60,642 nucleotides of DNA from a virus (taxonomy: Duplodnaviria; Heunggongvirae; Uroviricota; Caudoviricetes): IMG/VR virus record IMGVR_UViG_2721755676_000007, one strand, 5' to 3'. Shown piece after piece: positions 7,301 to 34,267 of this stretch (its first letter is position 1; every line of letters begins with the position of its first letter). Under the pieces are notes generated by a model that saw only the letters and a program-made list of their open reading frames with translations, was not told the origin of the DNA and did no database searches. The position numbers and the translations under genes were made by a program.

Positions 7301-7817
7301 GCAGGTTACCCACCACCACCGATGCCAGATACTGTGAGGTGGTTTTGCCTTTAATGGTGATGTCTTTTTCCGTCACCCAGCCACCGTTACGTTGTATCTG
7401 AACCAGCAGGCGGACTTCCGACGGATTCCGGTCCCCCTTTGAGGTGGTTTCCACCAGTGCCTGCACACCGAAGGTAAAGCGCAGACGGTCGATGTTTGCC
7501 GACGTGATGGTGCGGGTAATCGGCGTGTCGTATTTCACTTCCGTACCCAGCACCGTCTCGGAACCGGAGGATTCAAAGCCCTCCGGCGGCGTCTGCTCCT
7601 GCTCACCTGCCCGGAACACCACCGTGACGCCGGAGATATTGGTATTCCCCTCACTGTCCAGCACCGGCGTACTGTTCAGCAGCACGCTTTTTAATCCATC
7701 CACCGGACCTTCAATCGGCCCTTCGCTGATGACATCGATCACACTCAGCAGCTGCGTGGACTTCAGGTTGTCCTTCGCTTCGCGCGGGGTATGCCCCTTA
7801 CTGCTGCCTTTACCCAT
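4338..7817 (-). CDS. J: Tail tip / host specificity protein J
   Basis: 1159-aa ORF beginning [24 protein letters not shown], collinear with lambda J. Confidence 0.95.
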
Positions 7818-7877
7818 TCGTCACGCTCCATAAACGACAAAACCGCCCGCAGGCGGTTTCACATAAAATGTTTTGCA

Positions 7878-8549
7878 TCAGCGACCAATCACCACAACCT
7901 GACCACCATCCCCTTCGTCTGCCGTGCTGATCTCCTGAGAGACCACCCGCGACCCCACGCGCATTTCACCGTACAGAACGGGCAGAACATTGCCCTGGGC
8001 AACCATGTTATCCAGTGAGGAGAAATAGGTGTTCTGTTTGCCGTTATCTGTACTTGCTGCCGTGGGCGTCCTGGCTTTCGGTGCCAGCATCTGCGCCACA
8101 CCACCAAGTACCATACTGGCACCGAGAGAAAACAGGATACCGGTCATACCACCGGCCCCAATGGCTGCCCCCCATGCTGCAAGAGTGGCTCCGGCAGTAA
8201 AGAATGATCCGGCAATGGCGGCAGCCCCCAGAACAATCTGGAATACGCCCCCTGACTTGGCCCCGGCGACTCTGGGAACAATATGAATCACAGCGCCGTC
8301 AGGCAGAGTCTCATGTAACTGCGCCGTTAACCCGGACGTGCTGACGTCCCGCCCGGCAATCCGTACCTGATACCAGCCGTCGCTCAGTTTCTGACGAAAC
8401 GCCGGGAGCTGTGTGGCCAGTGCGCGGATGGCTTCAGCCCCCGTTTTCACACGAAGGTCGATGCGGCGGCCAAATCGTTGCAAATCCCCGTAAAGGCAGA
8501 TGCGTGCCATGCCCGGTGACGCCAGAGGGAGTGTGTGCGTCGCTGCCAT
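7878..8549 (-). CDS. I: Tail assembly protein I
   Basis: 223-aa ORF MAATHTLPLASPGMARICLYGDLQRFGRRIDLRV matching lambda I; overlaps K as in lambda. Confidence 0.88.
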   Translation of the reverse strand: MAATHTLPLASPGMARICLYGDLQRFGRRIDLRVKTGAEAIRALATQLPAFRQKLSDGWYQVRIAGRDVSTSGLTAQLHETLPDGAVIHIVPRVAGAKSGGVFQIVLGAAAIAGSFFTAGATLAAWGAAIGAGGMTGILFSLGASMVLGGVAQMLAPKARTPTAASTDNGKQNTYFSSLDNMVAQGNVLPVLYGEMRVGSRVVSQEISTADEGDGGQVVVIGR

Positions 8550-18206: not shown

Positions 18207-18920
18207 CCGGGACTGCAGTGTCTCCCGGACGTCATCCGGAAGATGGCTGTAGGGGTTGCCATCCACCTTATGGCTGCCGCTGTAAATCAGCGTGATTTCC
18301 ACACCCTGTTTCTCCAGGGCAGCACCGTAATTACTGTGAGCCATCATGACGCCGATGGAGCCTGTCCGGGCGGTCTGCGTGACCAGACGCCGGGAGGCGG
18401 CACTGGCAAGCAACTGACCTGCACTGCAGTTCATGTCGTTGGCCAGCGCCCATACCGGTTTTATGTCACGCACACGGGCGATGATGTCAGCGCAGTCAAA
18501 TGCCCCCGCCACCATCCCGCCGGGCGTGTCCATATCGAGCAGAATGCCGTCCACCATCGGATCGCTGGCAGCCTGTTGCAGACGGGCGATAATGCCGTTG
18601 TAACCGGTCATCCCCGAGTACGGCTGCAGCGCCCGCGTCCGGCTGACCAGCGTGCCGGACACCGGCAGCACGGCGATGCCGTTCATGACCTGATAACTGC
18701 GGGCCTGTCGTGGTCCGTCATCATCACCGGATAATGCCAGCGTCGCGAGTGCCTCCTGGGCAGTCAGGCTGTCGCCGGACACCGCATCCGTCAGGCGGCT
18801 GATCCCAAGCTGGCCTGCAAGCGCACAAAAGAAAACCCGCGCATAGGCGGGTTCAAGCATCAGCGGCTCATTAAAGGCCATACTGGCAATATGCGGGAGA
18901 TTACGCAGCTCTGCTGTCAC
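17601..18920 (-). CDS. C: Prohead protease / scaffold protein C (S49/ClpP-like)
   Basis: 1320 nt as in lambda C when started at the GTG at 18918-18920 (TAELRNLPHIASMAFNEPLMLEP); an in-frame ATG exists further upstream at 19055. Confidence 0.85.
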   Translation of the reverse strand: MTAELRNLPHIASMAFNEPLMLEPAYARVFFCALAGQLGISRLTDAVSGDSLTAQEALATLALSGDDDGPRQARSYQVMNGIAVLPVSGTLVSRTRALQPYSGMTGYNGIIARLQQAASDPMVDGILLDMDTPGGMVAGAFDCADIIARVRDIKPVWALANDMNCSAGQLLASAASRRLVTQTARTGSIGVMMAHSNYGAALEKQGVEITLIYSGSHKVDGNPYSHLPDDVRETLQSRMDATRQMFAQKVSAYTGLSVQAVLDTEAAVYSGQEAIDAGLADELVNSTDAITVMRDALDARKSRLSGGRMTKETQSTTVSATASQADVTDVVPATEGENASAAQPDVNAQITAAVAAENSRIMGILNCEEAHGREEQARVLAETPGMTVETARRILAAAPQSAQARSDTALDRLMQGAPAPLAAGNPASDAVNDLLNTPV

Positions 18921-19680
18921 TCTTCTCCTCCTCTGTTGATTGTCGCAGTCCGGATTCAAATGCCGCAGCCGCCCAGGCGGGCGGTTTAAGACCGGCTGCG
19001 CGGCGCTCCATCGTTTCACGGACCTGCTGGGCAAAAATTTCCTGATAGTCGTCACCGCGTTTCGCGCACTCTTTCTCGTAGGTGCTCAGTCCGGCTTCTA
19101 TCAGCATCACCGCTTCCTGAACTTCTTTCAGACCATCGATGGCCATACGACCGGAGCCTATCCAGTCGCAGTTCCCCCAGGCACTGCGGGCTTCCTGAAA
19201 ACTGAAGCGCGCTTTTGAAGGTAACGTCACCACGCGGCGAACGATGGCCTCTTCCAGCCAGCACAGAAACATCTGGCTCGCCTGACGGGATGCGACGAAT
19301 TTTCGCCGCCCCATAAAGTACGCCCACGACTCGTTCGCACTGGCCCGTGCCGTGGAGTAGCTCATCTGGGCGTAATTCCGGGAAAGCTGCTCATACGAGA
19401 CACCCAGCCCGGCAGCAATATACCGCAACAGTGACTGCTCAAATACGGAGTAGCCGTTATCCGTGTCCTGAGCCGTCTGCAGGTTCAGTGAGTCCCCCGG
19501 CATCAGGTGCGGCACTTTTGCGCCTCCCAGCCGGACCGGTGCTGCGGCGTAATACGCGGCAATTTCACCAATCCAGCCAGTCAGCCTTTCCCGCTGCTCC
19601 TGACTGTTCGCGCCCAGAATAAAATCCATCGCTGACTGCGTATCCAGCTCACTCTCAATGGTGGCGGCATACATCGCCTT
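18901..19680 (-). pseudogene. B: Portal protein B, C-terminal fragment (separated from its N-terminal part by the 10.9 kb insertion)
   Basis: Reads ...KA-MYAATIESELDTQSAMDFILGAN... to a C-terminus ending EEEKSDSRAA as in lambda B; upstream sequence beyond 19680 is unrelated. Confidence 0.9.
19673..19680. repeat. Left copy of the 8-bp junction direct repeat ATCGCCTT (att core or target duplication)
   Basis: Identical octamer at 30572-30579; both copies read K-A-(M/I) in the B frame. Confidence 0.85.
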
Positions 19681-19754
19681 TATGAAAAGACAGGAAAAAA
19701 TAAAATTTAAAAACAGTACATTACGAATGCTCAGACCTATCGTTTAAAGGAGTC

Positions 19755-19777
19755 GCAATACACACTGCAATACACGA
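19755..19777. repeat. Two direct copies of GCAATACAC(A/G) near the left end of the insert (candidate integrase arm sites)
   Basis: tcGCAATACACAcTGCAATACACGa; three copies of TGCAATACACA occur at the other end (30381-30434). Confidence 0.5.
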
Positions 19778-20107
19778 TTATTTATAAGATGAGCGGCATC
19801 CGTCATAAAGCTGGTGGATGCTTTTTCTATGCATATATGCACAGTTTTAGTGGGCGTTAATGTCGATATAGGGATCCCCATATCGAGATTGGATACCTGG
19901 CTTTTTTCCGGTTAACCTTTAATCAGGCTGGTGGGCTTTACCTGTTTTGTATGAGTGGTCATCATGACCATGTCATAACAAAAACCCCATATTCGTGGTT
20001 TTTCTGTGTCGGGCTATTCTGTCGTTGCTGTGCTGATTTGGCTGGTGGGCTGAATCATCATTACGGCGATGCAGCTATGTAGACGTTCCGGCCTCCTCAA
20101 ATTGAGG

Positions 20108-20245
20108 ATTGTGGAAGAATCAATGGGTTAGTCTTACTTTCCCGACATCCCCCAATGGGGGTTTTCGAAACAATCAATAGCTTAGGCTTACTTCCCCGAT
20201 TTCCTGCATTGCAGGTTTTCGAAATAATCAATGGGTTAGGCCATC
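20108..20245. repeat. 54-bp tandem repeat, about 2.5 copies, each unit containing a short hairpin palindrome
   Basis: AATCAATGGGTTAG / AATCAATAGCTTAG / AATCAATGGGTTAG at 20118, 20172, 20226; palindromes CCCCCAATGGGGG (20149-20161) and CCTGCATTGCAGG (20203-20215). Confidence 0.7.
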
Positions 20246-20489
20246 GTGCAATTTTGCACTTTGCCAGCCAGCGCAATGTCGCGTTATCAGTCCTCAGATG
20301 TGAGGGATGTAGCCAGCTTTTCCCCCAGTGGGGGATATCCAGCACCGACGGCTTAACTGTGCGTGCCAGCACAAGGTAGCCTTGAACTACTTACTGCATC
20401 CCATCTTACAGGCCGTGCCTTCCTGCTTAACTTTTTGCAATGCAACAAGTCAGCCAGCGCAATTTTGCGTTATCGGGAATATCAGCAAG

Positions 20490-20771
20490 TTACCGCCGCA
20501 ATCGTTCCGGCTTCTTCCACTGGTAAGTATTTTTCGCGCTCTCCCTCCGTTGTTGAGAACGGCGACGATATGCCAGCAACTCAAGGACTCTTGTTCGTAT
20601 GTTGCGCATATCCACGCCGTTAAGCTCAATACCGTCACGGCGCATCACCTCAGCCACTACACGCACATAATTATCTGCGGTCACGCTGTCCGGCTGCGTG
20701 GCCTGTTCGTCATGCTGCTTGCTGATTCCACAAGCACGGCGGATTAATCGCAGTATTTCGGATTCAGTCAT
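20490..20771 (-). CDS. Hypothetical protein (93 aa), satellite-encoded
   Basis: ORF downstream of the Nu1-like gene in the same orientation; no recognisable motif. Confidence 0.45.
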   Translation of the reverse strand: MTESEILRLIRRACGISKQHDEQATQPDSVTADNYVRVVAEVMRRDGIELNGVDMRNIRTRVLELLAYRRRSQQRRESAKNTYQWKKPERLRR

Positions 20772-20782
20772 AGCGTACTACG

Positions 20783-21337
20783 TTACTTATCTTTATTCGG
20801 CTGCAACTTATCCGGTACGTTTCCGGCAGTTTCCATCAGATAATCGGACAGCATCAGCGGTATGTTTTCGTCAAGTTTTGCGCATGCGTTACAGGCTCTG
20901 ATAACTTCTTTTTTCAGTCCATCCAGCATAGACGGCTTCATGTCGGGAAACTTCCTTGTCATGGCAAGCGGCAGGCTGTCCATGATTGAAGAAATCTGAC
21001 TCGCCAATTTTGAAAGCACGTATATACAAAACGCTGTATCAATAACGTCGCCGCGTTCGCGCTCGTTTTTAAGCTCCTGCGCCTCTGCCTGTGCTGTCAG
21101 CAATCTGATCCTGACTCGTAGAAGTTCATCATCATCAATCTCGCCTTTGTCGTCTGTAATCTGGTTAATTGCATTGCTAACCCGATTGTCTATTACGCTG
21201 GCAACATCATAAAACGCCTCGCGGCCTTTACGTTCAACGGGAGTCACTCCCCACTTGTCGAACGCTGTCGCACTTACACGGCAGCTTTGCGCCATGTTTT
21301 TTTTGTTCATCAGGTGCGATTTCATCAATATCCCCAC
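20783..21337 (-). CDS. Terminase small subunit homologue (Nu1-like), satellite-encoded
   Basis: C-terminal half aligns with lambda Nu1 (DTAFCIYVLSKLASQISSIMDSLPL vs ETAFCTFVLSRIAGEIASILDGIPL); sits about 120 bp downstream of the satellite cos; start may be the internal MNKKNM at 21310. Confidence 0.8.
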   Translation of the reverse strand: MGILMKSHLMNKKNMAQSCRVSATAFDKWGVTPVERKGREAFYDVASVIDNRVSNAINQITDDKGEIDDDELLRVRIRLLTAQAEAQELKNERERGDVIDTAFCIYVLSKLASQISSIMDSLPLAMTRKFPDMKPSMLDGLKKEVIRACNACAKLDENIPLMLSDYLMETAGNVPDKLQPNKDK

Positions 21338-21436
21338 TTAAGTAATGTTTCAGGTTGGTGTATTGGCTTTATCTTTTCCTTTTTATTCATAGAGATAGAG
21401 CGAACAACAAAACCACCACCAGCACCCGAAAAAGGC

Positions 21437-21502
21437 TCATAAATAGCGAAAACCCGCGAGGTCGCCGCCCCGTAGCCTACCGGATCACCGGAAAGGACCC
21501 GC
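21437..21502. other. Satellite cos site (cosN 12-mer at 21459-21470)
   Basis: 66-bp block with 4 mismatches to the prophage cos block at 34202-34267; contains the reverse complement of GGGCGGCGACCT; flanking cosB-side sequence differs. Confidence 0.8.
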
Positions 21503-21526
21503 CAGCCAGAGCGGGCCCTAATTTCA

Positions 21527-21910
21527 TCAACCAATCAGCTTATAGCGACCATCCCGTGCATTGCGGCGTACACGCTCAATCTTGAGGCATAGCGCCGCAT
21601 CTGGCTTTTTTGGGACAGGTACGCGGCAATATTCAGAAGCGCGAGGAATATTATTTATCCAGTCGATCACTTCACTTAAATACCAGGCCTTACGCCCTTC
21701 CGTAACCTGCACACGCTCCGGGAACTCTCCACTAGCCTCAAGGTTTAGCAGTGTACGACGACTCAGGGTTGTAATTTCCATCACCTGATTCATATCAACA
21801 AGGCGCTCGCTTAAACACATTTTGTCAGCGATAGCTTTTAATTCCTCTACAGCTGGATTCGGGTACATCATTTCGGCAATTGGCTTAAGGTCATTGTAAT
21901 CATTCTGCAT
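21527..21910 (-). CDS. AlpA-family HTH regulator (127 aa)
   Basis: C-terminal region ITTLSRRTLLNLEASGEFPERVQVTEGRKAWYLSEVIDWI resembles AlpA/excisionase-type HTH. Confidence 0.55.
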   Translation of the reverse strand: MQNDYNDLKPIAEMMYPNPAVEELKAIADKMCLSERLVDMNQVMEITTLSRRTLLNLEASGEFPERVQVTEGRKAWYLSEVIDWINNIPRASEYCRVPVPKKPDAALCLKIERVRRNARDGRYKLIG

Positions 21911-21921
21911 TGTATCCCCCT

Positions 21922-22263
21922 TTACACACGAGCCAGCGGCTGAACAGAAATACCTGAGCCAACAAACGCTGCAACCTTTACTGACAGTTCTTTAACAGAC
22001 TCAGGCCAGTTCAGAGCATCAACATTTAAGACACCTGTCTTATAGACCTGAGCCTGTGTTTTTTTCGCGGTGTCGATTTGTACAGCGGAAACATAAACCG
22101 CTTTACCTACGCTCGAACCATCCCATACCACCAGTGCACCTGTTGCATCTTCCTGCATCAGTGGCGTAAATGCAGGAATTACCCCTTTATTAGCTGAAAA
22201 TATCCCCAGCGTAGTCACCAGTGCTTCAGTGCCAGCCATGAGTTCAGTGTAATGAGTAGCCAT
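21922..22263 (-). CDS. Head decoration protein D paralogue, satellite-encoded
   Basis: 113 aa; aligns with lambda D over VWDGSSVGKAVYVSAV...YKTGVLNVDALNWPE vs [17 protein letters not shown]...[15 protein letters not shown]. Confidence 0.7.
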   Translation of the reverse strand: MATHYTELMAGTEALVTTLGIFSANKGVIPAFTPLMQEDATGALVVWDGSSVGKAVYVSAVQIDTAKKTQAQVYKTGVLNVDALNWPESVKELSVKVAAFVGSGISVQPLARV

Positions 22264-22272
22264 TGCTCCCCC

Positions 22273-23319
22273 TTAGCCAATGCGAACGGTAACAAAACGA
22301 TTGATGCGGGCCGGTATTGGCTGTGGTGCTGAATGTGTCTGCACATATTCAATAGCCGGATCACCAGGCACAATATAGTTTTTCGGTGCAAGTTCGGCTT
22401 TAGTCAGCCCCATTCGGATTAGCTCCGGATCCTGAATACCGCCATAGGCGACAATCCCCTGAAGAGCCGTATTGCCAAGCACCATCAAATCAGGATCAAG
22501 GAAATGTTTTTCTGTTCCGTCCTCGTCGGTATAACGCCCGCTGTAAACAACAATCGCAACATCGCCCATATACCCTTTAAAACTCACCGAATCACCAAGG
22601 TCTTTAAGGGCCGTTTCCAGTTCGGAATTAGAACCACGACGGGTATCCAAAGCCTCTTTTATCGCTCTGAATGAACGGTATTTCTTCCATACATTACCAC
22701 CCATAATGATGATATTAGTGACGCCCTCACTAAATTCTGCGTAGCTCTCAATATCATCATTTGGATCAAAAGTTTCTTTATCCTTACCTGACCACTCAGT
22801 ACCGCCAGACTGAGTGATGATATTTTGTGGTTTTATATTCCAGTCCAGCTCATAACGTTCAATACCATCGCCCTCAATGATATTTTTCCCCGTTGTGATT
22901 GCCTGAACAGCAAGCCATTCAATACGTGCACGAATAGCTTTAGCCTGATTTACAATCGCCTGTTTAACTTTAATATTACGCGCCCCAAAAGCATTGTATT
23001 GCTCAGGTGACACACCAGCAGGGCGCACAGCTAACTTATTTGGATCAATGCTGCTTTTCGGCTTCATATAACCTGGACGAATTGTTTTTGATTCGTATCC
23101 CTCATCTCGTGAAACTTTACTGCCCACCATAGGAGAGCAAAACGCCGCGATCGGGATATTTGGATCGTCGATCGTATCAAGAATAATGTCTCTCGATTCA
23201 AACATTACCGAGCGAGTGAAAAACAAACTGGTAAACAACGCATTTAATTTTTTTTGCACATCTTCAGCATTAGCCACCTGCACAAGCTGTGTAGGCGAAT
23301 ATAAATCAACCATACTCAT
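22273..23319 (-). CDS. Major capsid protein E paralogue, satellite-encoded
   Basis: 349 aa from MSMVDLYSPTQL; conserved blocks ITQSGGTEWSGKDKETFDPNDDIESYA and LDTRRGSNSELETALKDLGDSVSFKGYMGDVAIVVYSGRY match lambda E. Confidence 0.85.
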   Translation of the reverse strand: MSMVDLYSPTQLVQVANAEDVQKKLNALFTSLFFTRSVMFESRDIILDTIDDPNIPIAAFCSPMVGSKVSRDEGYESKTIRPGYMKPKSSIDPNKLAVRPAGVSPEQYNAFGARNIKVKQAIVNQAKAIRARIEWLAVQAITTGKNIIEGDGIERYELDWNIKPQNIITQSGGTEWSGKDKETFDPNDDIESYAEFSEGVTNIIIMGGNVWKKYRSFRAIKEALDTRRGSNSELETALKDLGDSVSFKGYMGDVAIVVYSGRYTDEDGTEKHFLDPDLMVLGNTALQGIVAYGGIQDPELIRMGLTKAELAPKNYIVPGDPAIEYVQTHSAPQPIPARINRFVTVRIG

Positions 23320-23530
23320 CCTCTTTACATTCATTACAAATAATTGTGAATATATTCTATTACCGATGTCTGCTATGCGAACACATGCAACCAAGTGCAA
23401 TGTTGTATAAAATATGCCGTAACAACTTCAGTGCTGATAATTCGTGTTAATGTATTTACTTCCTTTGGTCGGGATTTATGTAGCATGCCGGAAAATCTAT
23501 TTTTTTCCGGCATCTTTTTGTTTGCAGAAT

Positions 23531-23953
23531 TTAAAACGGTATATTATCGCCGTACGGATCATCATTCCCCGACTGTTGTTTTGCCCTGTTCAGTGCGTCA
23601 GTGGCCTGCCCCTGCTGGCCTTTTTTGCCGCCCGGTCGCGCCGTTCGCGCACTGATTACGCTGTCTGCGATAAGCTGCCAGCCCCGCCGCGTTTCGCCGT
23701 TCTGGCCTGTCCACTGGCTTACCTGCATGTTACCCGCCACGCTCACCAGTTCGCCTTTGTGGTGTTTTGCCAGTGCGTCGGCCTGTCTGCCAAACGCCAG
23801 GACGGATAACCACATCGTCGCCGTTCCGTCATCTGCCTGGCTGCACGGCAGGGGAACCGCCATACTCGCCATCGCCATTTGTGTCCCTTTGCTGGTGGTC
23901 TTTAACTGCGGGTCAGCCACCAGCCGCCCGTAAGCCGCTATCTGTGCTGTCAT
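23531..23953 (-). CDS. ssb: Single-stranded DNA-binding protein (SSB-like)
   Basis: 140 aa with OB-fold-like N-terminus, Gly/Gln-rich linker and acidic C-terminal tail ending DNIPF (SSB tip DDDIPF). Confidence 0.7.
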   Translation of the reverse strand: MTAQIAAYGRLVADPQLKTTSKGTQMAMASMAVPLPCSQADDGTATMWLSVLAFGRQADALAKHHKGELVSVAGNMQVSQWTGQNGETRRGWQLIADSVISARTARPGGKKGQQGQATDALNRAKQQSGNDDPYGDNIPF

Positions 23954-24264
23954 GCTGTCTGCTCTCCGGTTTTAACATTGATGGTTGTCACCTGTTCCGC
24001 TTCGGCAATCTCCCGTTCTGTCAGCGTGGCAAAGTTTGCCGCTGCTGTGGTCATAAATGCGCTTATCAGGTCGGGATGTTCCTTCGCGTATCCTGCCCGT
24101 GTGTGGTGGTCTATCGCTTTGATTGCCACCTTTAAGGAAAGCTCTGTCATGTCTAACGCTTTATATTTTGCCTGTGTTCTGTCTCTGCGAATTTTGGTCA
24201 TTTGTCGCCCCTGATTCATGTTTTCGGCTGGCATGTTTGTTAAGTGATTTTTATGTATGCGCAT
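23950..24264 (-). CDS. Hypothetical protein (104 aa)
   Basis: ORF coupled to ssb (ATGA overlap), immediately downstream of the iteron region. Confidence 0.45.
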   Translation of the reverse strand: MRIHKNHLTNMPAENMNQGRQMTKIRRDRTQAKYKALDMTELSLKVAIKAIDHHTRAGYAKEHPDLISAFMTTAAANFATLTEREIAEAEQVTTINVKTGEQTA

Positions 24265-24315
24265 TTATTTTCACCCCCCCTCGTTTAAAAAGTTTTTAGT
24301 TGTGCCTCCCCCCCC

Positions 24316-24537
24316 TCTACCCATCTACCCGAATGCTCATCATGTCAGTAATGGCGCCGCTTTCAGCGGGTAGATAGCTTTTTTGACTCCTCTACCTGCC
24401 GTCTACCCTGCTACCTGAAACTGATAAAATCAGGTAGAAGAGGTAGAGAGCTTTTATTAGCCTTCTACCTAGCCCTATACCCACTTATCATGTTGAATAA
24501 TATGCGTTTATTTCGTTCAGGTAGATGGGGTAGATGG
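24316..24537. repeat. Iteron array (GGTAGA / TCTACC repeats), candidate satellite replication origin
   Basis: At least 12 copies of the hexamer in both orientations immediately downstream of the primase gene. Confidence 0.7.
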
Positions 24538-24550
24538 CTTTTACAAAAAA

Positions 24551-26305
24551 TTATAAAAACGCGTCGCAATCGTCTGTTGTAATTGCGTTGGTCTGCGTTA
24601 CTCCCTTAACTTTTCGCGTAATATATTCATGCCCGTAAACTTTCGCCGCTGGCTTCATGGCCTTGCTGAACTCAGCCACGTTTAGCGGTTTGCTCCTGCC
24701 CGCGTATGCCATAAACGCCAGATAGACGCGGTAAAGGCTGTTCCTGGTCGTGTACTTCACTGAATCACCACCGCCACCCATCATCAGGCCGCGCGCTTCC
24801 TCCAGAAAATTCAGGAACTGGCAAAACTCAATAACCGGATCCGTCTGTTGCTTTATTGCCAGTGCTTCATCACCGTCACGCTGTTCCAGTAGTAAAGCCC
24901 GTGCCTTCTCAGGGTCGGTAAAGTTCGCCAGCAATCGGCGGATAATAACGGGGATTTCAGCCGCAATCTTTTCCGGTAGCTCCCTGTCTTTTTCGGCCTC
25001 ACTGACGATATTGTCGAAACGGAAAATCACGCGACGACGTGCCACACCTCCGGCCCGTTCGGTGAATATCATCGGGTTGTTGTTGGTCGCCAGCACCACC
25101 GCCCTGATTACCGCCGTGAAACGCTTTTCATATTTCGGGTTAATTTCCACGGGGTCGCCGCCTGTGATTTTCTTGATGCCCGTTCCTTCGCCTGTATATT
25201 TCGGCTGGTCAGCCAGGACGATAAGACGACTCCCGACAACCTGCGCACGTCCACCAGCATCATCAAGCGATGTCATTTCAGCGCTTACCGTGTTCTGTTT
25301 CCCTGCCAGAAGGCTGGCTATGTGTGTGAATGTACTTTTACCGCTCCCGCCGTCTCCGGTGGCCTCAATAAACATCTGCCAGTCGTACCGGTTCGCCATA
25401 ATCATGTACAGCGCGGCACATATACGCATCATCTTGCGCGGGTCTTTTCCGGCTGCGTGCTCAAGCCATTTATGAAAGTTTGGCGCGTTATCGCGGATGT
25501 TCTCCCCTGGTGCTGGTGGCGTGTACTCAATGCCGTTGTGCGTGGTGATCCAGTTCTCCGGCGTGTGCGGGGAAAATTCCCCCGTTTTCAGGTCAAGCGC
25601 ACCATTGGCGAACGGCAGCAAATCGCCAGACGGCTCGCCCATTGGTTCGGCAATAACTTTTAACGCTTCCACGGCGTTATTGATTACGCGCTTGCTGAAA
25701 GTGGCCCTGTGCTCTGAATAGATCGCCACCATTTCGCGGCTAAGTTCCATTGTGCTGACCGGACACCATACCCCGCCGCGCCATACGTGAACGATTTCAC
25801 TTTCAGGATGTACGCAAACGCCATCAAAGCGATCGGCAAGCAACTGCGCGCGCTCACTGTCCGCCATCTGCGAAAGTTGCGCCTTTTGCTTTACCGGAAG
25901 CTCAATGACCAGACCATCAGAAAGATTCTGGCGTTCACGGGCCAGATATTCGCGCCAGTTCTGCACCTCCTGGCCGTGCATACCCTCAGGATAAAAATTT
26001 GCATCCTGTACGCCTGCTGCCGCCAGCTTCTGACCAATCGCCTTTATCATTACAGGCGCAAGATATCCGGCCCTGTATATGCGTGCTGATTTTCGGCCTT
26101 CCGGCACAATTTGCAGATTATCCAGTTCGGATAGCTGCTGCTCCCCAAGCCACACAGGAGGCTCATTATCTCCGGCCATACGCGCATCATGTTCCTGCCA
26201 TTGTTTCGCGTGTGCCCAGGCATCACTACCCGCAAAAATAATTACTTCTGTTCCTTTGTGTTTTATGCCGCGTGACTGCTGTTTTACGTTCGGTGCCAGT
26301 TTCAT
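24551..26305 (-). CDS. P4 alpha-like primase/helicase (D5 family, Walker A GDGGSGKST)
   Basis: 584-aa ORF with P-loop NTPase core and phage/plasmid primase C-terminal-type architecture. Confidence 0.8.
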   Translation of the reverse strand: MKLAPNVKQQSRGIKHKGTEVIIFAGSDAWAHAKQWQEHDARMAGDNEPPVWLGEQQLSELDNLQIVPEGRKSARIYRAGYLAPVMIKAIGQKLAAAGVQDANFYPEGMHGQEVQNWREYLARERQNLSDGLVIELPVKQKAQLSQMADSERAQLLADRFDGVCVHPESEIVHVWRGGVWCPVSTMELSREMVAIYSEHRATFSKRVINNAVEALKVIAEPMGEPSGDLLPFANGALDLKTGEFSPHTPENWITTHNGIEYTPPAPGENIRDNAPNFHKWLEHAAGKDPRKMMRICAALYMIMANRYDWQMFIEATGDGGSGKSTFTHIASLLAGKQNTVSAEMTSLDDAGGRAQVVGSRLIVLADQPKYTGEGTGIKKITGGDPVEINPKYEKRFTAVIRAVVLATNNNPMIFTERAGGVARRRVIFRFDNIVSEAEKDRELPEKIAAEIPVIIRRLLANFTDPEKARALLLEQRDGDEALAIKQQTDPVIEFCQFLNFLEEARGLMMGGGGDSVKYTTRNSLYRVYLAFMAYAGRSKPLNVAEFSKAMKPAAKVYGHEYITRKVKGVTQTNAITTDDCDAFL

Positions 26306-26601
26306 TTTTTACCTCTGAATCCGTTAATCATGGTTTTCATTTTCTGGATATTTCCCCACGCTTTTTCCCTGCTGATGGGCTTACTGCGGGGTGCGGCATA
26401 TACCAGGGAAAAATCACGCCGGAACTGATAAACAGGCATCACGCAGTCATAGCTATACCCCTCACGGCGGTAAGTGATGCGCCGTTCTGCCACGCCTTTA
26501 ATCGTTACCGTGCCGCCGTATTTATCGCGGTAAATATCGCCGTTCATAAATTCAGGTCGAGCGGGGCCGCTGGCAATAAAGCCAGAATTTTTCATTTCCA
26601 T
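26302..26601 (-). CDS. Hypothetical protein (99 aa)
   Basis: ORF coupled to the primase start (overlap at 26302-26305). Confidence 0.45.
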   Translation of the reverse strand: MEMKNSGFIASGPARPEFMNGDIYRDKYGGTVTIKGVAERRITYRREGYSYDCVMPVYQFRRDFSLVYAAPRSKPISREKAWGNIQKMKTMINGFRGKK

Positions 26602-26618
26602 ATTATTTATTCCTCGAC

Positions 26619-26840
26619 TTAACTCGACTTATTTGATAGCAGGGCACTATTTATTGCGTCATTGAGTTTTTCTGCTGATTCATCAATAAGTGACAACAGG
26701 CCATAAGCAATATTTGCATCTTCATTGTCATTTATGCAATCAAGCCACATATTTAATATTGCTTTTGCTGAATTATTTAAAGTTAATGAACTTTCTGCAC
26801 ATGCTAACAATTTAAAAAAGACTTCCCGTTCTGTATTCAT
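26619..26840 (-). CDS. Hypothetical protein (73 aa)
   Basis: Small ORF in the same operon orientation. Confidence 0.4.
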   Translation of the reverse strand: MNTEREVFFKLLACAESSLTLNNSAKAILNMWLDCINDNEDANIAYGLLSLIDESAEKLNDAINSALLSNKSS

Positions 26841-27032
26841 TTAATCCCCCACCAGCTTACTTTCTTCCTCAATCAAAAAACTAGCGACACTTCCCGAAAG
26901 ACGCGCCAGTAGGCTCGCCAGTGCGGATATATCAGCATCTGTAATTTTGTTCGGGTATACCTCAAGAAGGCGGCAAATAATTTCTGTCTGGTGCGCACGT
27001 TCAGCGGCTTCGTGTAATGTAATTTCCTGCAT
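26841..27032 (-). CDS. Hypothetical protein (63 aa)
   Basis: Stop/start overlap with the next ORF at 27032. Confidence 0.4.
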   Translation of the reverse strand: MQEITLHEAAERAHQTEIICRLLEVYPNKITDADISALASLLARLSGSVASFLIEEESKLVGD

Positions 27033-27217
27033 TAATGCACCTCTTTTAATTCATACACTGCTGAAATAATGACTTGTGATAAGCCATATTCTGATGATTC
27101 GCTTCTCACCGCAGCAATAGCCGTCTGAACATTAACAGCCTTCACATTCTGAGCGATACCAATTGTGTGGCCTATTGGGTTAACAGCTCGGGCAAATACA
27201 CGGAAGGTTTTAAGCAT
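27032..27217 (-). CDS. Hypothetical protein (61 aa)
   Basis: ATG preceded by GGGAG-type Shine-Dalgarno; first gene of the leftward operon. Confidence 0.45.
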   Translation of the reverse strand: MLKTFRVFARAVNPIGHTIGIAQNVKAVNVQTAIAAVRSESSEYGLSQVIISAVYELKEVH

Positions 27218-27597
27218 GACTCACTCCCTGGCGGATTTTTGCAGCGAATACAGCAACACAACCGGACGGGCAACGGCTACGCGCTTCGCGTTCCGTCCAG
27301 GCGGTTACGTGGATGATTTGAGATTCTCCGGCACTCAGTGCCAGAAAACGCCACACAAAGGCCGTTTGTGTGTGTACAAGGTGTGGTATATGATTTACAG
27401 CAACCATAACGGCTCCTAGTTTACGTTGTTGGTTAGACGCCCCGTATGTGTTCCCAGCACTGCGGGGCGTTGCTCTTTGTATTTCAACAATCCTTTCGGT
27501 GTGTTTCATGTTATGAGCGCATGAAACACACGTCAAGGCTTTTTGTATTTCTTTTTTTGTGTATACTGAAACACACCGATGATTAGGAGTTTCAGAA

Positions 27598-27903
27598 ATG
27601 GCAACGGCTAACAAAAACGCAAAATCACAACTGACAACTGTCAGAGTCCCACTAGATGTTATGCAAGGGATGGAATCCGTTAAGCTGGACGGTGAAAGCA
27701 ATGCCGGATTTATCGTAACCGCCATGCGCGGAGAAATAGCCCGCCGCCAAGCAGAAGGCAGCGGAGAAAATCCCCTTGTGTCGTCACTGGATGCCCTGGC
27801 TAAGGTCGAACAAATCGGCATCAAAGCAGCCGAGGAGATCGGGCAACTCGTCACCGTCGCGCGTGAAGAACTCCAGCGACGCAAGGTCAAAGAGCATGAA
27901 TAG
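27598..27903 (+). CDS. Small DNA-binding-like protein (possible ribbon-helix-helix), the only plus-strand gene in the satellite
   Basis: 101 aa; AGGAG 8 nt upstream of ATG; divergent from the small-ORF/primase operon across 27218-27597. Confidence 0.5.
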   Translation: MATANKNAKSQLTTVRVPLDVMQGMESVKLDGESNAGFIVTAMRGEIARRQAEGSGENPLVSSLDALAKVEQIGIKAAEEIGQLVTVAREELQRRKVKEHE

Positions 27904-28236
27904 CCAATATCAGCGCCATAGTTTGAGGAACGCAGGCGCATTGCTTTACAGGACAGCACCATGAGCGACACAGAATCAACCAAAACACCATCACCAACTC
28001 GTAAGAGACGACGCAAAAATATAGCGCATGAACATGAATCAGAAAGATTCGCACCTTGTTCGTTTGCTCTTGAGAAATTCCTTAAAGAGCACAGGAAAAA
28101 GCTCTCGTTGCAAACCTTGGAACGAACCAAATCTGGCTGATCACATTGCCCACCAGCCGCAAATGTGGCATTGTTGGTGATGCTTTTGTTTTCCCTTGTT
28201 CCCACTGGCGACCCTTTTGCGGTCGCCTTTGTTTTG

Positions 28237-28560
28237 TCACTGAATGCGGTTACCAAAGTAAAACTCAGGCTGATATTCACGTATCAGCGTTTTTTCTTCT
28301 TCCTCCAGCTCACGCTTTTTGCGCTTACATGCCTGTAGCTCCCTCCCCTTCTCGCTGGCACTTATTTGATATTGCTCTTTACGGCGGGAAAAATCCTGTA
28401 ATGCACCCCACGGGATACCATAAGTCCCCGTTTTTCTGATACCTGGTATCACATTTCTGAATACCCAGTTACTGAAACGATGAGCAAATGTGCCAGGCGT
28501 CGTTGCTTTGCGGCTGCGGGCTATTAGTTTGTAGAAACCTGACTCAGAGATAATTCTCAT
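28237..28560 (-). CDS. Bro-N domain protein, C-terminal part (split ORF)
   Basis: SESGFYKLIARSRKATTPGTFAHRFSNWVFRNVIPGIRKTGTYG is the second half of a Bro-N domain. Confidence 0.6.
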   Translation of the reverse strand: MRIISESGFYKLIARSRKATTPGTFAHRFSNWVFRNVIPGIRKTGTYGIPWGALQDFSRRKEQYQISASEKGRELQACKRKKRELEEEEKTLIREYQPEFYFGNRIQ

Positions 28561-28814
28561 ATTCTGATTTCCTCCTGGGTGTAAGTTAAATTTACTCCCT
28601 TTTCATCATCATCAAGCATCTGCAACGCCGTACGCGAATTGGTTAGTTCCAGCGCAGCACAAACATCTTTTGCAACAAACCACGGATCGCCGTTCAGATA
28701 CACCACACGAACGTTCACACTATCAAAGCGCAGAACGACGAGATCACGAATATCGCAGAATTTTTTCACTGGACGAGCGTACCCCTTGCCCGTCACGGCA
28801 ATATTTTTATTCAT
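28557..28814 (-). CDS. Bro-N domain protein, N-terminal part (split ORF)
   Basis: DPWFVAKDVCAALELTNSRTALQMLDDDEKG is the first half of a Bro-N domain; ends GGAGGAAATCAGAATATGA overlapping the next start. Confidence 0.6.
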   Translation of the reverse strand: MNKNIAVTGKGYARPVKKFCDIRDLVVLRFDSVNVRVVYLNGDPWFVAKDVCAALELTNSRTALQMLDDDEKGVNLTYTQEEIRI

Positions 28815-28870
28815 CGCGTTTTTACCTTATAGACAAAAAACCCCTCGTGATGAGGGGCATTATTTACTGG

Positions 28871-29128
28871 TTATTGCTGTTTTGTTTTTCCAGGTTTCCA
28901 TCCAGGATGCCACTCACCACGGATCCATGCCTGAACCTCTGAAAGTCGATACCCTGCAGCACGTTCACCGATCTTGATACGTCGCGGGAATTTACCTGCC
29001 TGCTCCATTTTCCAGCGTGTTGAGTTTGCCAGCGTGGTAAGTGCTATGCACTCTTTTTCACGAATGAACCGATCAATGTCCTTCATTGTGCGCAAATCGT
29101 TTTCATCAACAAGAGAATAAATTGCCAT
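28871..29128 (-). CDS. alpA: AlpA-family transcriptional regulator / excisionase-like
   Basis: 85 aa directly downstream of the integrase, typical P4/CP4-57-type int-alpA pair. Confidence 0.7.
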   Translation of the reverse strand: MAIYSLVDENDLRTMKDIDRFIREKECIALTTLANSTRWKMEQAGKFPRRIKIGERAAGYRLSEVQAWIRGEWHPGWKPGKTKQQ

Positions 29129-29129
29129 A

Positions 29130-30371
29130 TCACACCACCTCTTTATTAAGCTCGATAACGTTGTTGTTAAATCCTGCTATCGTATTAAGGTAATTAACCC
29201 ACATATTAAGCACCTCAAGTTTTTTCTTTATATGCCTGCTTTTATTGTAAACACCAGCAACCCCTTTCACTTTATGACCTAAAAGAAGTTCGACAATATA
29301 AGGATCCGCCCCCATATCATTAAGCGTAGTGGAAAATGTGCGCCTGAAATCATGTATGCACCACAAGCCATTAGTATCATGACCAAGACGCCTGCATATT
29401 CTGTTTGCAGCCCCTGTTATTGTCGCCCTTTGCAAAGCACAACCGACAACATAACCGCGATTTTTTGTTTCTGCGTAAAGATTAACGATCCATTGTTTTA
29501 TTCCGTCAGGAACAGGCCTTACTATAGCCTCCTTGTTTTTGCTGTGCTCTTTTGGGACTGTCCATACCCAGTTTTTTAAATCCCATTCGTCCCAGGTGGA
29601 TAGCCTCGCCTCCTGCTGTCGGCAACCAAACACCAGGCAGATAACCATTATTCTTCGGTTATATATTGATGACAGAGTTAGCAAATTATTACCGTAAGCA
29701 TAAGACCATACATCAGCGGTTTCATTGATATTAAGAACGCGATCCCTTATACCGGATGAGCGCCCGACATAACTTACGTTAATATCTCCAAAGGGATCGC
29801 ACGCGATGTATTGCCTGACGCGACAAAAACGCAACGCCTGTTTGATATCAAGAAAAATTGCACCAGACATAACAGGCGCATTTTTTTTGATCCTGTCAAA
29901 GACGGTAAGCCATGTGTGTAATTTGCACTGTTCTATAGCCATATCACCGATATAGGGGAAGATATGCTTTTCAAATCGTTTTATTAAATATTCATGCTCT
30001 TTTCTGGCTGTTGTGGCGTGATTGTCGTACCAGTAAAACAGCGCATCCCTTACGGTCACTGGTTGCATAGTTTTTTCGGCAGCAAGTTTTATTTGCCTGC
30101 GGGGGTCCAGATTTTCAGCCAGCCATTCACGGCACTGATCACGCATGCGCCTGGCCGTTGCAAGAGACATGTCAGGATAGCGACCAAGTGTAAGCCATAC
30201 CGGAGGGGATTCCCTGCCACCAAGACGATAGTAAAAAACAAAGCTGATCCCCCCAACCATGCTTACACGCACAGACAACCCGCGCCCATCCGCTATTGTT
30301 TTTTGTTTGTCCTGCCGTTTTCCGACAAGACTCTTTAACAGTTTGTCACTGAGTTTGTTTTCAATAGCCAT
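29130..30371 (-). CDS. int: Tyrosine integrase, P4-type
   Basis: 413 aa; N-terminal GRGLSVRV...GGISFVFYYRLGGR arm-binding-type domain; C-terminal HDFRRT...LLGH...Y catalytic signature. Confidence 0.88.
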   Translation of the reverse strand: MAIENKLSDKLLKSLVGKRQDKQKTIADGRGLSVRVSMVGGISFVFYYRLGGRESPPVWLTLGRYPDMSLATARRMRDQCREWLAENLDPRRQIKLAAEKTMQPVTVRDALFYWYDNHATTARKEHEYLIKRFEKHIFPYIGDMAIEQCKLHTWLTVFDRIKKNAPVMSGAIFLDIKQALRFCRVRQYIACDPFGDINVSYVGRSSGIRDRVLNINETADVWSYAYGNNLLTLSSIYNRRIMVICLVFGCRQQEARLSTWDEWDLKNWVWTVPKEHSKNKEAIVRPVPDGIKQWIVNLYAETKNRGYVVGCALQRATITGAANRICRRLGHDTNGLWCIHDFRRTFSTTLNDMGADPYIVELLLGHKVKGVAGVYNKSRHIKKKLEVLNMWVNYLNTIAGFNNNVIELNKEVV

Positions 30372-30380
30372 TAAAAGCCC

Positions 30381-30434
30381 TCAAGAGATTTGCAATACAC
30401 ACCCATCCCGATCGCCAATTTGCAATACACATTG
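30381..30434. repeat. Three direct copies of TGCAATACACA upstream of the satellite integrase (candidate arm-type sites)
   Basis: Copies at 30381, 30411 and 30424; same motif twice at the opposite end of the insert. Confidence 0.55.
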
Positions 30435-30571
30435 CAATACACAAAACCGCGAAAAACTGGAAGGGTGATGAACGGTCATCAAAAGCATGGAAAACGACAT
30501 TCCAGACGCAGCAAGGGTTTCAGTGGAGTTGGCGAACGATGCGGGCAACTACGGTGAGATGATAGACATAA

Positions 30572-33500
<2,929 letters not shown>

Positions 33501-33526
<26 letters not shown>

Positions 33527-34046
33527 TCAGCAACCCCGGTATCAGTTCATCCAGCGCGGCTGCTTTGTTCATGGCTTTGATGATATCCCGTTTCAGGAAA
33601 TCAACATGTCGGTTTTCCAGTTCCGGAAAACGCCGCTGCACCGACAGGGGGATCCCGTCGAGAATACTGGCAATTTCACCTGCGATCCGCGACAGCACGA
33701 AAGTACAGAATGCGGTTTCCACCACTTCAGCGGAGTCTCTGGCATTCTTCAGTTCCTGTGCGTCGGCCTGCGCACGCGTAAGTCGATGGCGTTCGTACTC
33801 AATAGTCCCTGGCTGGAGATCTGCCTCGCTGGCCTGCCGCAGTTCTTCAACCTCCCGGCGCAGCTTTTCGTTCTCAATTTCAGCATCCCTTTCGGCATAC
33901 CATTTTATAACGGCGGCAGAGTCATAAAGCACCTCATTACCCTTGCCACCGCCTCGCAGAACGGGCATTCCCTGTTCCTGCCAGTTCTGAATGGTACGGA
34001 TACTCGCACCGAAAATGTCAGCCAGCTGCTTTTTGTTGACTTCCAT
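33501..34046 (-). CDS. Nu1: Terminase small subunit Nu1
   Basis: 181-aa ORF MEVNKKQLADIFGASIRTIQNWQEQGMPVLRGG matching lambda Nu1. Confidence 0.93.
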
Positions 34047-34201
34047 TGTTCATTCCACGGCCAAAAACAGAGAAAGGAAACGACAGAGGCCCAAAAGTTC
34101 GTTTTCAGCACCTGTCGTTTCCTTTCTTTTCAGGGGGTATTTTAAATAAAAACATTAAGTTACGACGAAGAAGAACGGAAACGCCTTAAACCGGAAAATT
34201 T

Positions 34202-34267
34202 TCATAAATAGCGAAAACCCGCGAGGTCGCCGCCCCGTAACCTGTCGGATCGCCGGAAAGGACCCGC
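34202..34267. other. Prophage cos site (cosN 12-mer at 34224-34235; lambda genome ends)
   Basis: Contains reverse complement of GGGCGGCGACCTCGCGGGTTTTCGCTATTTATGAAAATTTTCC and of the lambda right end ...CGACAGGTTACG. Confidence 0.9.

Follow-up and report, generated by a model that had tools for sequence, protein, structure and literature searches.

A helper-type cosN joined to a putative private cosB and a Nu1-family small terminase in a helper-embedded PICI of Escherichia coli

Background

Packaging specificity determines which DNA exits a lysing cell, and the small terminase has been described as a core PICI component that is "responsible for redirecting the packaging" (PMC10085698). For the cos-type PICIs of Gram-negative bacteria, the only mechanism that has been worked out is that of Rpp, which needs the small terminase (TerS) of the helper. 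The element EcCICFT073 combines lambda-like cosQ and cosN with a cosB that is unlike that of any phage, and has no TerS (Fillol-Salom 2018, 2019; PMC6092414, PMC6739421). Its Rpp protein heterodimerises with the helper TerS and retargets the terminase to the EcCICFT073 cosB, and multimers of the element are packaged in heads of full size (PMC6092414, PMC6739421). Rpp is devoid of the C-terminal 30-40 residues of TerS, and the helper TerS has been proposed to act as the bridge to the large terminase (TerL) (PMC9026076). The packaging specificity of phage N15 is operational in lambda hybrid phages (PMC4669245).

Here we describe a cos site of a PICI that is embedded in its helper prophage. The satellite itself, its embedded position and the principle of a helper-type cosQ/cosN combined with a private cosB have all been published already. 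In the literature that we searched, there is nothing on the anatomy of TerS-type cos sites, on N15-type specificity or an R3 candidate in such sites, or on cassette exchange with Rpp; the work on Nu1-type TerS in PICIs and the follow-ups on helper-embedded PICIs (HE-PICIs) that we surveyed do not mention this cassette, and the publications searched report no experiment on this element or on the TerS of any cos-type PICI.

Results

The satellite and its helper prophage

The window, that is, the whole stretch of 60,642 nucleotides that was analysed, comes from the chromosome of E. coli, matches strain 210205630 with 100% identity and contains a lambdoid prophage on the minus strand. The satellite occupies positions 19673..30579 (minus strand) within the portal gene of this helper, with 10,899 bp between the att cores: the core, ATCGCCTT, is an 8-bp repeat found at 19673-19680 and 30572-30579, and joining the two portal halves (18901-19683 and 30568-31401) at ATCGCCTT restores an ORF of 533 aa. 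The element has been catalogued as Eco4028.11.B_Phage_portal_2_241, with the att identity aaggcgat (Tommasini, Mageeney & Williams 2023, PMC10111431, SuppFile1), in a study in which this site group is not discussed with regard to cos or terS (PMC10111431).

Along the satellite lie, in this order, genes for an integrase, a regulator of the HTH type, BRO-N (frameshifted), an Icd-like protein, a primase and an SSB, followed by those for a capsid protein of the lambda E type, a gpD-type decoration protein and an AlpA-type regulator, then cos and the genes for a Nu1-family TerS and a 93-aa protein. This combination of an integrase, AlpA, a Bro zone, primase/SSB, a co-oriented late zone and att repeats is that of the Gram-negative, helper-embedded PICIs. 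The presence of capsid and decoration genes brought a cf-PICI into consideration, which would have its own complete head set (portal, protease, connectors) as well as TerL and HNH, an assignment that we rejected: the head and packaging genes consist of homologues of the major capsid protein, the decoration protein and TerS only, with no portal, protease or TerL encoded in the satellite. The identical RefSeq record annotates a frameshift in the BRO-N gene (approximately 28237-28814, minus strand); given this frameshift, the regulation of this satellite copy may be impaired, and the copy might not be fully active.

The helper encodes a Nu1 protein that is identical to lambda Nu1 at 180 of 181 positions (33501..34046, minus strand) and a large terminase annotated as gpA-like (31601..33526, minus strand), the presumed cutter of both cos sites in the window.

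The cosQ-cosN block shared by satellite and helper

Throughout, positions in cos are counted in the packaging direction, down the window, and bp 1 denotes the G with which the cohesive end begins (window position 21470). An earlier note on this DNA described a 66-bp match between 21437-21502 and the helper block that comprises cosQ, cosN and I2 (34202..34267, minus strand). We recovered this match with 62 identical bases out of 66; all four mismatches (21475, 21479, 21480 and 21487) are confined to the cosQ-cosN spacer, and a further mismatch delimits the block at each edge. The complete 12-nt cohesive end reported at 21459-21470 is indeed there, AGGTCGCCGCCC being the reverse complement of GGGCGGCGACCT. 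The window has just two copies of AGGTCGCCGCCC (21459 and 34224), compared with a chance expectation of about 0.007 for a given 12-mer (both strands, 60.6 kb; our own arithmetic). Because both copies are on the plus strand, the two cos sites are in direct orientation, as claimed previously, and the reported distance of 12.8 kb is 12,765 bp, measured on the same strand. As the portal gene is split, no proheads would be expected to form until the satellite excises, and joint action of the two directly oriented cos sites is therefore not expected before excision.

The sub-sites of the satellite block were delineated by comparison with lambda and with relatives of the satellite, for which we used 80 IMG/VR loci encoding TerS proteins with 79-100% identity and measured conservation over the 64 distinct upstream sequences. 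The heptamer GGGTCCT in packaging orientation (21494..21500, minus strand), which we take to be the termination signal cosQ (Wieczorek & Feiss 2001), is identical to that of the helper, lies at the same offset (bp -29 to -23) and is conserved at 0.99. It is followed by a variable cosQ-cosN spacer (21471..21493, minus strand; 0.77), which comes in three sequence types among the relatives. The satellite cosN, GGGCGGCGACCT (bp 1-12; 21459..21470, minus strand), is invariant at bp 1-5 (1.00) and variable at bp 6-12 (0.86), and the bases that flank the nick sites, ACG on one side and CGCG on the other, are the same as in lambda; the conserved left half and nick-flanking bases identify it as a lambda-type cosN. 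Between cosN and cosB lies the I2-side segment CGCGGGTTTTCGCTATTTATGAG (bp 13-35; 21436..21458, minus strand; 0.97), which is common to the satellite, lambda, the helper and EcCICFT073. Overall, cosQ, cosN and bp 13-34 of the satellite are identical to those of the helper and phage lambda (34/34 against lambda for bp 1-34), the helper itself is identical to lambda over bp 1-70, and the order and orientation cosQ-cosN-cosB-terS are those of lambda. Both the 7-bp cosQ, among lambda-like phages, and I2, in lambda, 21 and N15, are known to be highly conserved and conserved, respectively (PMC4669245).

An imperfect hairpin at 21494-21517, GGGCCCGC-TCTGGCTG-GCGGGTCC followed by TTTCC, is located upstream of and overlapping cosQ, with cosQ as its 3' arm; relatives of the EcCICFT073 type have at this place a separate terminator-like hairpin, GGCCGGAGAAATCCGGC, with a T run.

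The relatives display at least seven forms of the cohesive end, for example, GGGCGTCAGGCG and GGGCGGAAGGCG, that differ at bp 6-12 and are accompanied by a constant flank block (the loci compared upstream of terS for such variants are L014, L016, L026, L030, L034, L049-L059 and L073). An obligatory match between the 12-nt ends of helper and satellite was considered and rejected: where both sites are contained in one locus, the cohesive ends match in four of the six pairs and differ in the other two, at bp 7-12. In these two loci, L097 (2312 and 14577) and L107 (6107 and 18872), the helper has GGGCGGAAGGCG and the embedded satellite has GGGCGGCGACCT, with five positions differing. It has been reported that bp 7-12 of cosN are not under selection and that the terminases of lambda and of lambda-N15 hybrids show no cosN specificity (PMC4669245). 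The elements that matter, namely cosQ, the nick-site bases, cosN in its left half and the segment on the I2 side, are all conserved in the satellite.

This pattern bears on the possibility that the cos block is an inactive remnant, left behind by the capture of late genes from a lambdoid phage and no longer used. PICI late zones do capture late genes of helpers, and the frameshifted BRO-N gene of this copy would fit such decay; conversely, conservation that is specific to individual sub-sites, in 64 distinct sequences and across genera, is not what a remnant would leave, and the same holds for the presence of the cassette in 219 complete genomes (see below) with terS annotated as intact in the records shown. 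We regard this explanation as highly improbable.

The flank between cosN and terS

In helper cosB (34047..34201, minus strand), the R3, inverted R2 and R1 sites are located at 34172-34183, 34116-34127 and 34071-34082, respectively, that is, at bp 53-64, 109-120 and 154-165. The earlier note held that the satellite sequence between cosN and the Nu1-like gene has no similarity to this region, and pairwise alignment bears this out. The global alignment score of the satellite flank (21311-21436) against 34047-34201 is within the range of shuffled sequences, 54 of 500 of which reach it, and the best blastn match between the two is 15 bp long with E=0.08, which is not significant. A simple duplication of the helper cos, which conserved flanks would have indicated, is thus ruled against. 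The limits assigned to the flank hold only in part: the lack of similarity stands, but the gene does not start at the GTG at 21337; it begins with the ATG at 21325, with an N-terminus, MKSHLMNKK, that is conserved in relatives, so that the flank extends from 21326 to 21458. Lambda R repeats of the CGTTTCC(N)TTCT type are absent from the satellite flank, where the best match has two mismatches and is on the opposite strand; in this respect, the flank is not a cosB of lambda specificity.

Within this flank, conservation is far from uniform. The spacer at bp 36-50 (21421..21435, minus strand) is 82% conserved, a neutral level, and contains, at about bp 42, the left recombination boundary of the cassette described below; identity to EcCICFT073 stops at position 7600 of locus L003, which corresponds to bp ~42. 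Immediately beyond, a block of 18 bp, GGTGGTGGTTTTGTTGTT (bp 51-68; 21403..21420, minus strand), is 98.9% conserved in the 64 distinct sequences, compared with 77-82% in the adjacent spacers and 83% at the third codon positions of terS (the values for terS codon positions 1, 2 and 3 in the same relatives are 0.95, 0.96 and 0.83). We denote this block R3-sat and consider it a candidate TerS-binding site. In distant HE-PICIs that encode TerS proteins with ~60% identity and are inserted in the capsid gene of their helpers, the flank has diverged except for GGTGGTGGTGTTGTT, which begins at bp 51; on this sequence comparison, its retention is a phylogenetic footprint at the position of R3. These distant relatives (L109-L111, helper-embedded, in the capsid E gene) also carry two accessory genes between terS and att, encoded on the other strand (6559-7916), for an FRG-domain protein and a DUF3892 protein, which may be cargo or defence genes.

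Aligned in register, bp 51-59 read GGTGGTGGT in the satellite, GTTGTTGTT in N15 and GGCGTTTCC in lambda; G51, G54 and T56 are common to all three, and the satellite matches N15 R3 at six of these nine positions. The base pair at position 56 is a key TerS contact (Feiss et al. 2015). The 12-mer of N15 R3, GAGGTTGTTGTT, matches the satellite at 7 of 12 positions in register (bp 48-59) and at 9 of 12 at two further places, bp 57-68 (direct) and bp 109-120 (inverted); two or more such matches occur in 0.6% of shuffled sequences, and the helper contains no match of this kind. The inverted one falls at the position of the inverted R2 of lambda (the helper R2 core also spans bp 109-120) and largely overlaps a second invariant block, ACACCAACCTGAA (bp 110-122; 21349..21361, minus strand), with 13 invariant columns in the 64 distinct sequences. 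This block is absent from the relatives with ~60% TerS identity, and because it is not kept there, we treat it as possibly an accessory, R2-like site. An RNA hairpin formed by bp 110-122 with the sequence preceding terS was set aside because its left arm is invariant and its right arm varies without compensation. A search for repeats in the satellite flank yielded no direct repeats and one 9-nt inverted pair of doubtful meaning; a strict IHF consensus scan found no site in the satellite flank and none in the known I1 region of the helper either, which makes it uninformative. Judging from the sequence, the satellite flank appears to be related in type to the cosB of N15 and is hence not without kin among the known cosB sites.

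The nonamer GGTGGTGGT at bp 51-59 of the satellite (21412-21420) is also the exact reverse complement of the Rpp-type sequence ACCACCACC that occupies bp 55-63 of EcCICFT073 (L003 7613-7621), in the opposite orientation and at a near-equal distance from cosN. A single R3 equivalent has been proposed for the EcCICFT073 cosB at bp 48-65 (Murialdo & Feiss 2022, PMC9026076). Under the tentative generalisation given below (see Implications), the (GGT)3/(ACC)3 core, which the two cassettes share in inverted form, would be the trace of one invertible R3 from which both descend.

These observations also weigh on plain mimicry of the helper cos, in which the helper Nu1-A holoenzyme would package the satellite through the shared block, with the flank and TerS not acting as specificity factors and TerS possibly serving as a decoy or inhibitor. 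There are precedents for this: a cloned EcCICFT073 cos without a phage cosB is still transferred by lambda and phi80, at reduced frequency, and HE-PICI 11capE does without terS while sharing 258 bp at 90% identity with the cos of its helper. The satellite flank, however, lacks lambda R sites, DNA with an N15-type cosB is not packaged by lambda, and mimicry leaves unexplained a flank block that is constrained above coding positions and travels with terS. We consider it quite improbable that mimicry accounts for this locus.

The satellite small terminase

The satellite TerS gene (20783..21325, minus strand) encodes a protein of 180 aa. It matches the Pfam family PF07471 (Phage_Nu1) with E=3e-24 over profile positions 80-162, in the C-terminal half only, and the helper Nu1 in BLASTP with E=4e-36 and 37% identity over residues 6-167; the alignment continues through the last residues of lambda Nu1. 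By these homologies, the protein is a full-length member of the Nu1 family that includes the C-terminal TerL-binding region. Its closest phage relative is gp1 of N15, with 47.6% identity. In the DNA-binding domain, 25 of 44 residues are identical between the satellite and N15, and the two proteins have two indels in common relative to lambda. The recognition helix is of the N15 gp1 kind: it reads SATAFDKWGVT in the satellite, SVQAFDKWGVQ in N15 and SIRTIQNWQEQGM in lambda, with AFDKWGV common to the satellite and N15. The C-terminal tail, LDENIPLMLSDYL, is lambda/N15-like, not of the phage-21 type (AGENVGGWIDDFR); the last 27-28 residues are ~44% identical to lambda Nu1, with an extension of 13 residues.

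An AlphaFold model of the protein has a pLDDT of 68 overall and of ~73-77 at the N-terminus, where the predicted elements (helices 8-14 and 21-25, a hairpin of strands 31-33 and 36-40, and a helix 41-58) follow the order expected of a winged helix. A search of PDB sequences with the satellite TerS gave no significant match, and a Foldseek search of PDB with the model gave none at E<=0.001, the only hits being non-significant ones to winged-helix proteins of the MerR type; the winged-helix assignment therefore depends on homology, and the fold is suggested by the sequence alignment together with the predicted secondary structure.

These features speak to a mode of action like that of Rpp, in which the satellite TerS would heterodimerise with the helper Nu1 through their DNA-binding domains, block packaging of the helper and retarget the mixed complex to the cosB of the satellite, so that Nu1 would be required. 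The satellite TerS sits in the exact rppA slot of an EcCICFT073-like late zone, Rpp has the same type of winged-helix domain and acts by heterodimerisation, and the satellite flank contains the reverse complement of the Rpp-type cosB core (GGTGGTGGT and ACCACCACC, respectively). Against this, the satellite protein extends to the last residues of Nu1, unlike Rpp proteins (139-154 aa), which have no TerL-binding tail, and being full length, it would need no bridge to TerL; furthermore, its recognition helix is N15-like whereas that of RppA is lambda-like. Direct comparison of the satellite TerS with RppA yields 10 identical residues of 48 in the DNA-binding domain and negligible similarity elsewhere. 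An Rpp-like mode is, in our estimate, unlikely, although better placed than mimicry or a remnant.

Exchange of TerS-type and Rpp-type cassettes

Comparison of a TerS-type locus, L079, with EcCICFT073 shows 95% identity over the stretch that begins with the capsid gene and ends at bp ~42 past cosN, no relationship across cosB+terS on one side and cosB+rppA on the other, and 95% identity again from cos2 through the gene for the 93-aa protein. This pattern implies that the flank and the adjoining gene move as one unit and that [cosB+terS] and [cosB+rppA] are functionally alternative modules of a common backbone. A count over 5,426 complete E. coli genomes gave 219 with the TerS-type flank and 94 with the Rpp-type flank; in the records listed, the TerS-type cassette adjoins terS, and the records shown annotate terS as intact. 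One E. coli genome has six copies of the TerS-type cosB flank and may carry several such satellites.

The inverted cos2 of EcCICFT073 is kept by some of the TerS-type relatives, between terS and the 93-aa gene (L079 3686-3749; L003 8276-8339); the satellite in the window has no room for cos2 and has only one cosN. The 93-aa protein (20490-20771, minus strand) has no Pfam match and follows the specificity gene in TerS-type and Rpp-type PICIs alike; its gene is ~80% identical at the DNA level between the satellite in the window and L003 (8374-8655).

Discussion

A proposed two-module cos site

The earlier note suggested that an unchanged cut site beside a recognition flank that differs is what a mechanism for packaging redirection would need. 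This reading gains support from the conserved element at the position of R3, which is co-inherited with the satellite terS, and from the parallel with cos1 of EcCICFT073, which has been proven functional by experiment; the satellite cos site is very probably functional. We propose, with a probability of roughly 65%, that it consists of two modules, a helper-type side and a private cosB that is read by the satellite's own TerS, with the helper TerL being recruited. The helper-compatible module (cosQ, cosN and the I2-side segment) would be read by the gpA-like TerL of the helper for cutting and termination, and the private module, that is, cosB with the core GGTGGTGGTTTTGTTGTT at bp 51-68, by the full-length Nu1-family TerS of the satellite. 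The TerS would dock on the private cosB via its N15-type winged-helix domain, and its lambda/N15-type C-terminal tail would recruit the large terminase of the helper; given the ~44% identity of the tail and its 13-residue extension, binding to the helper gpA stays putative. Satellite concatemers could then be cut and packaged into helper-built particles without the need for helper Nu1, and packaging would stop once the following cosQ-cosN of the concatemer is reached. We infer that the satellite would be packaged as multimers, with 4 x 10.9 kb amounting to 43.6 kb, ~90% of the 48.5 kb of lambda.

How such a TerS would treat the helper can be gauged from N15. The N15-specific terminase also packages lambda DNA, whereas lambda cannot package DNA with an N15-type cosB (PMC4669245). 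Because the N15-specific enzyme accepts lambda DNA, the satellite TerS may not discriminate against the helper, and by analogy, the packaging specificity of the satellite may be one-way, which could follow from an N15-like domain together with this asymmetry.

Implications

Relative to EcCICFT073, the difference is that the reader of the flank, as predicted from the sequence, is a full-length Nu1-family TerS in place of the Rpp adaptor. More broadly, cos-type enterobacterial PICIs might possess two interchangeable packaging cassettes, of which the TerS type frees the satellite of the helper TerS and confers one-way specificity, with an R3 ancestor common to both; we advance this generalisation tentatively and rate it at somewhat less than even odds. 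If it is true, the satellite would be packaged only by its own TerS and the helper packaging need not be blocked, an arrangement that suits a helper-embedded life. A complete TerS with its own cosB would constitute a second route, whose cassette outnumbers the Rpp type by more than two to one in the complete E. coli genomes counted, and this route predicts different helper ranges, given dependence on TerL only, as well as different outcomes of interference. The conserved 18-bp block is a precise candidate for the docking site of TerS and would represent a third natural variant of R3, aligned in register with the R3 sites of lambda and N15. The natural cassette swaps provide ready-made controls.

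Comparison with known packaging systems

Among other satellites, HE-PICI 11capE belongs to the same integrase clade and has cos at the equivalent place in the late zone (PMC10111431); it differs in having no terS and in sharing 258 bp at 90% identity with the helper cos, cosB included, as opposed to the 66 bp and private cosB described here. The staphylococcal pac-type PICIs (SaPIs) rely on the strategy that we propose here, in that the satellite TerS pairs with the helper TerL and redirects packaging to satellite DNA; they differ in that packaging is of the headful pac type, the TerS belongs to an unrelated family, and interference is mediated by a separate inhibitor, Ppi.

Lambda and phage 21 share the same cosQ and the same cosN, and differ in cosB and in the recognition helix of TerS, which results in separate packaging specificities, while the C-terminal domain of TerS sets the TerL partner. 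Those, however, are two autonomous phages, whereas here a satellite would borrow the TerL of the other partner. A probable point in common between N15 and the satellite is a cosB in which a single G/T-rich R3 with a 3-nt period predominates, at about bp 48-60; N15 differs in the R3 core (6/9) and in the cohesive end, which is GGGCGGCGTCCG in N15 and that of lambda in the satellite. In addition, the E. coli lineage of the satellite adds an inverted R-like block at the position of lambda R2, and the element is a satellite, not a phage.

The closest system is that of EcCICFT073, which belongs to the same PICI family, has the same order of the late zone, is identical in cosQ, cosN and bp 13-34 before diverging, and likewise has a private cosB without lambda R sites just upstream of the gene for the specificity protein. 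The differences concern an inverted cos2, which EcCICFT073 has and the satellite in the window does not, the cosB core (ACCACCACC at bp 55-63 versus GGTGGTGGT at bp 51-59) and, above all, the protein encoded next to it: EcCICFT073 has no TerS and encodes a 144-aa RppA without the TerL-binding tail, in contrast to the 180-aa Nu1 homologue of the satellite.
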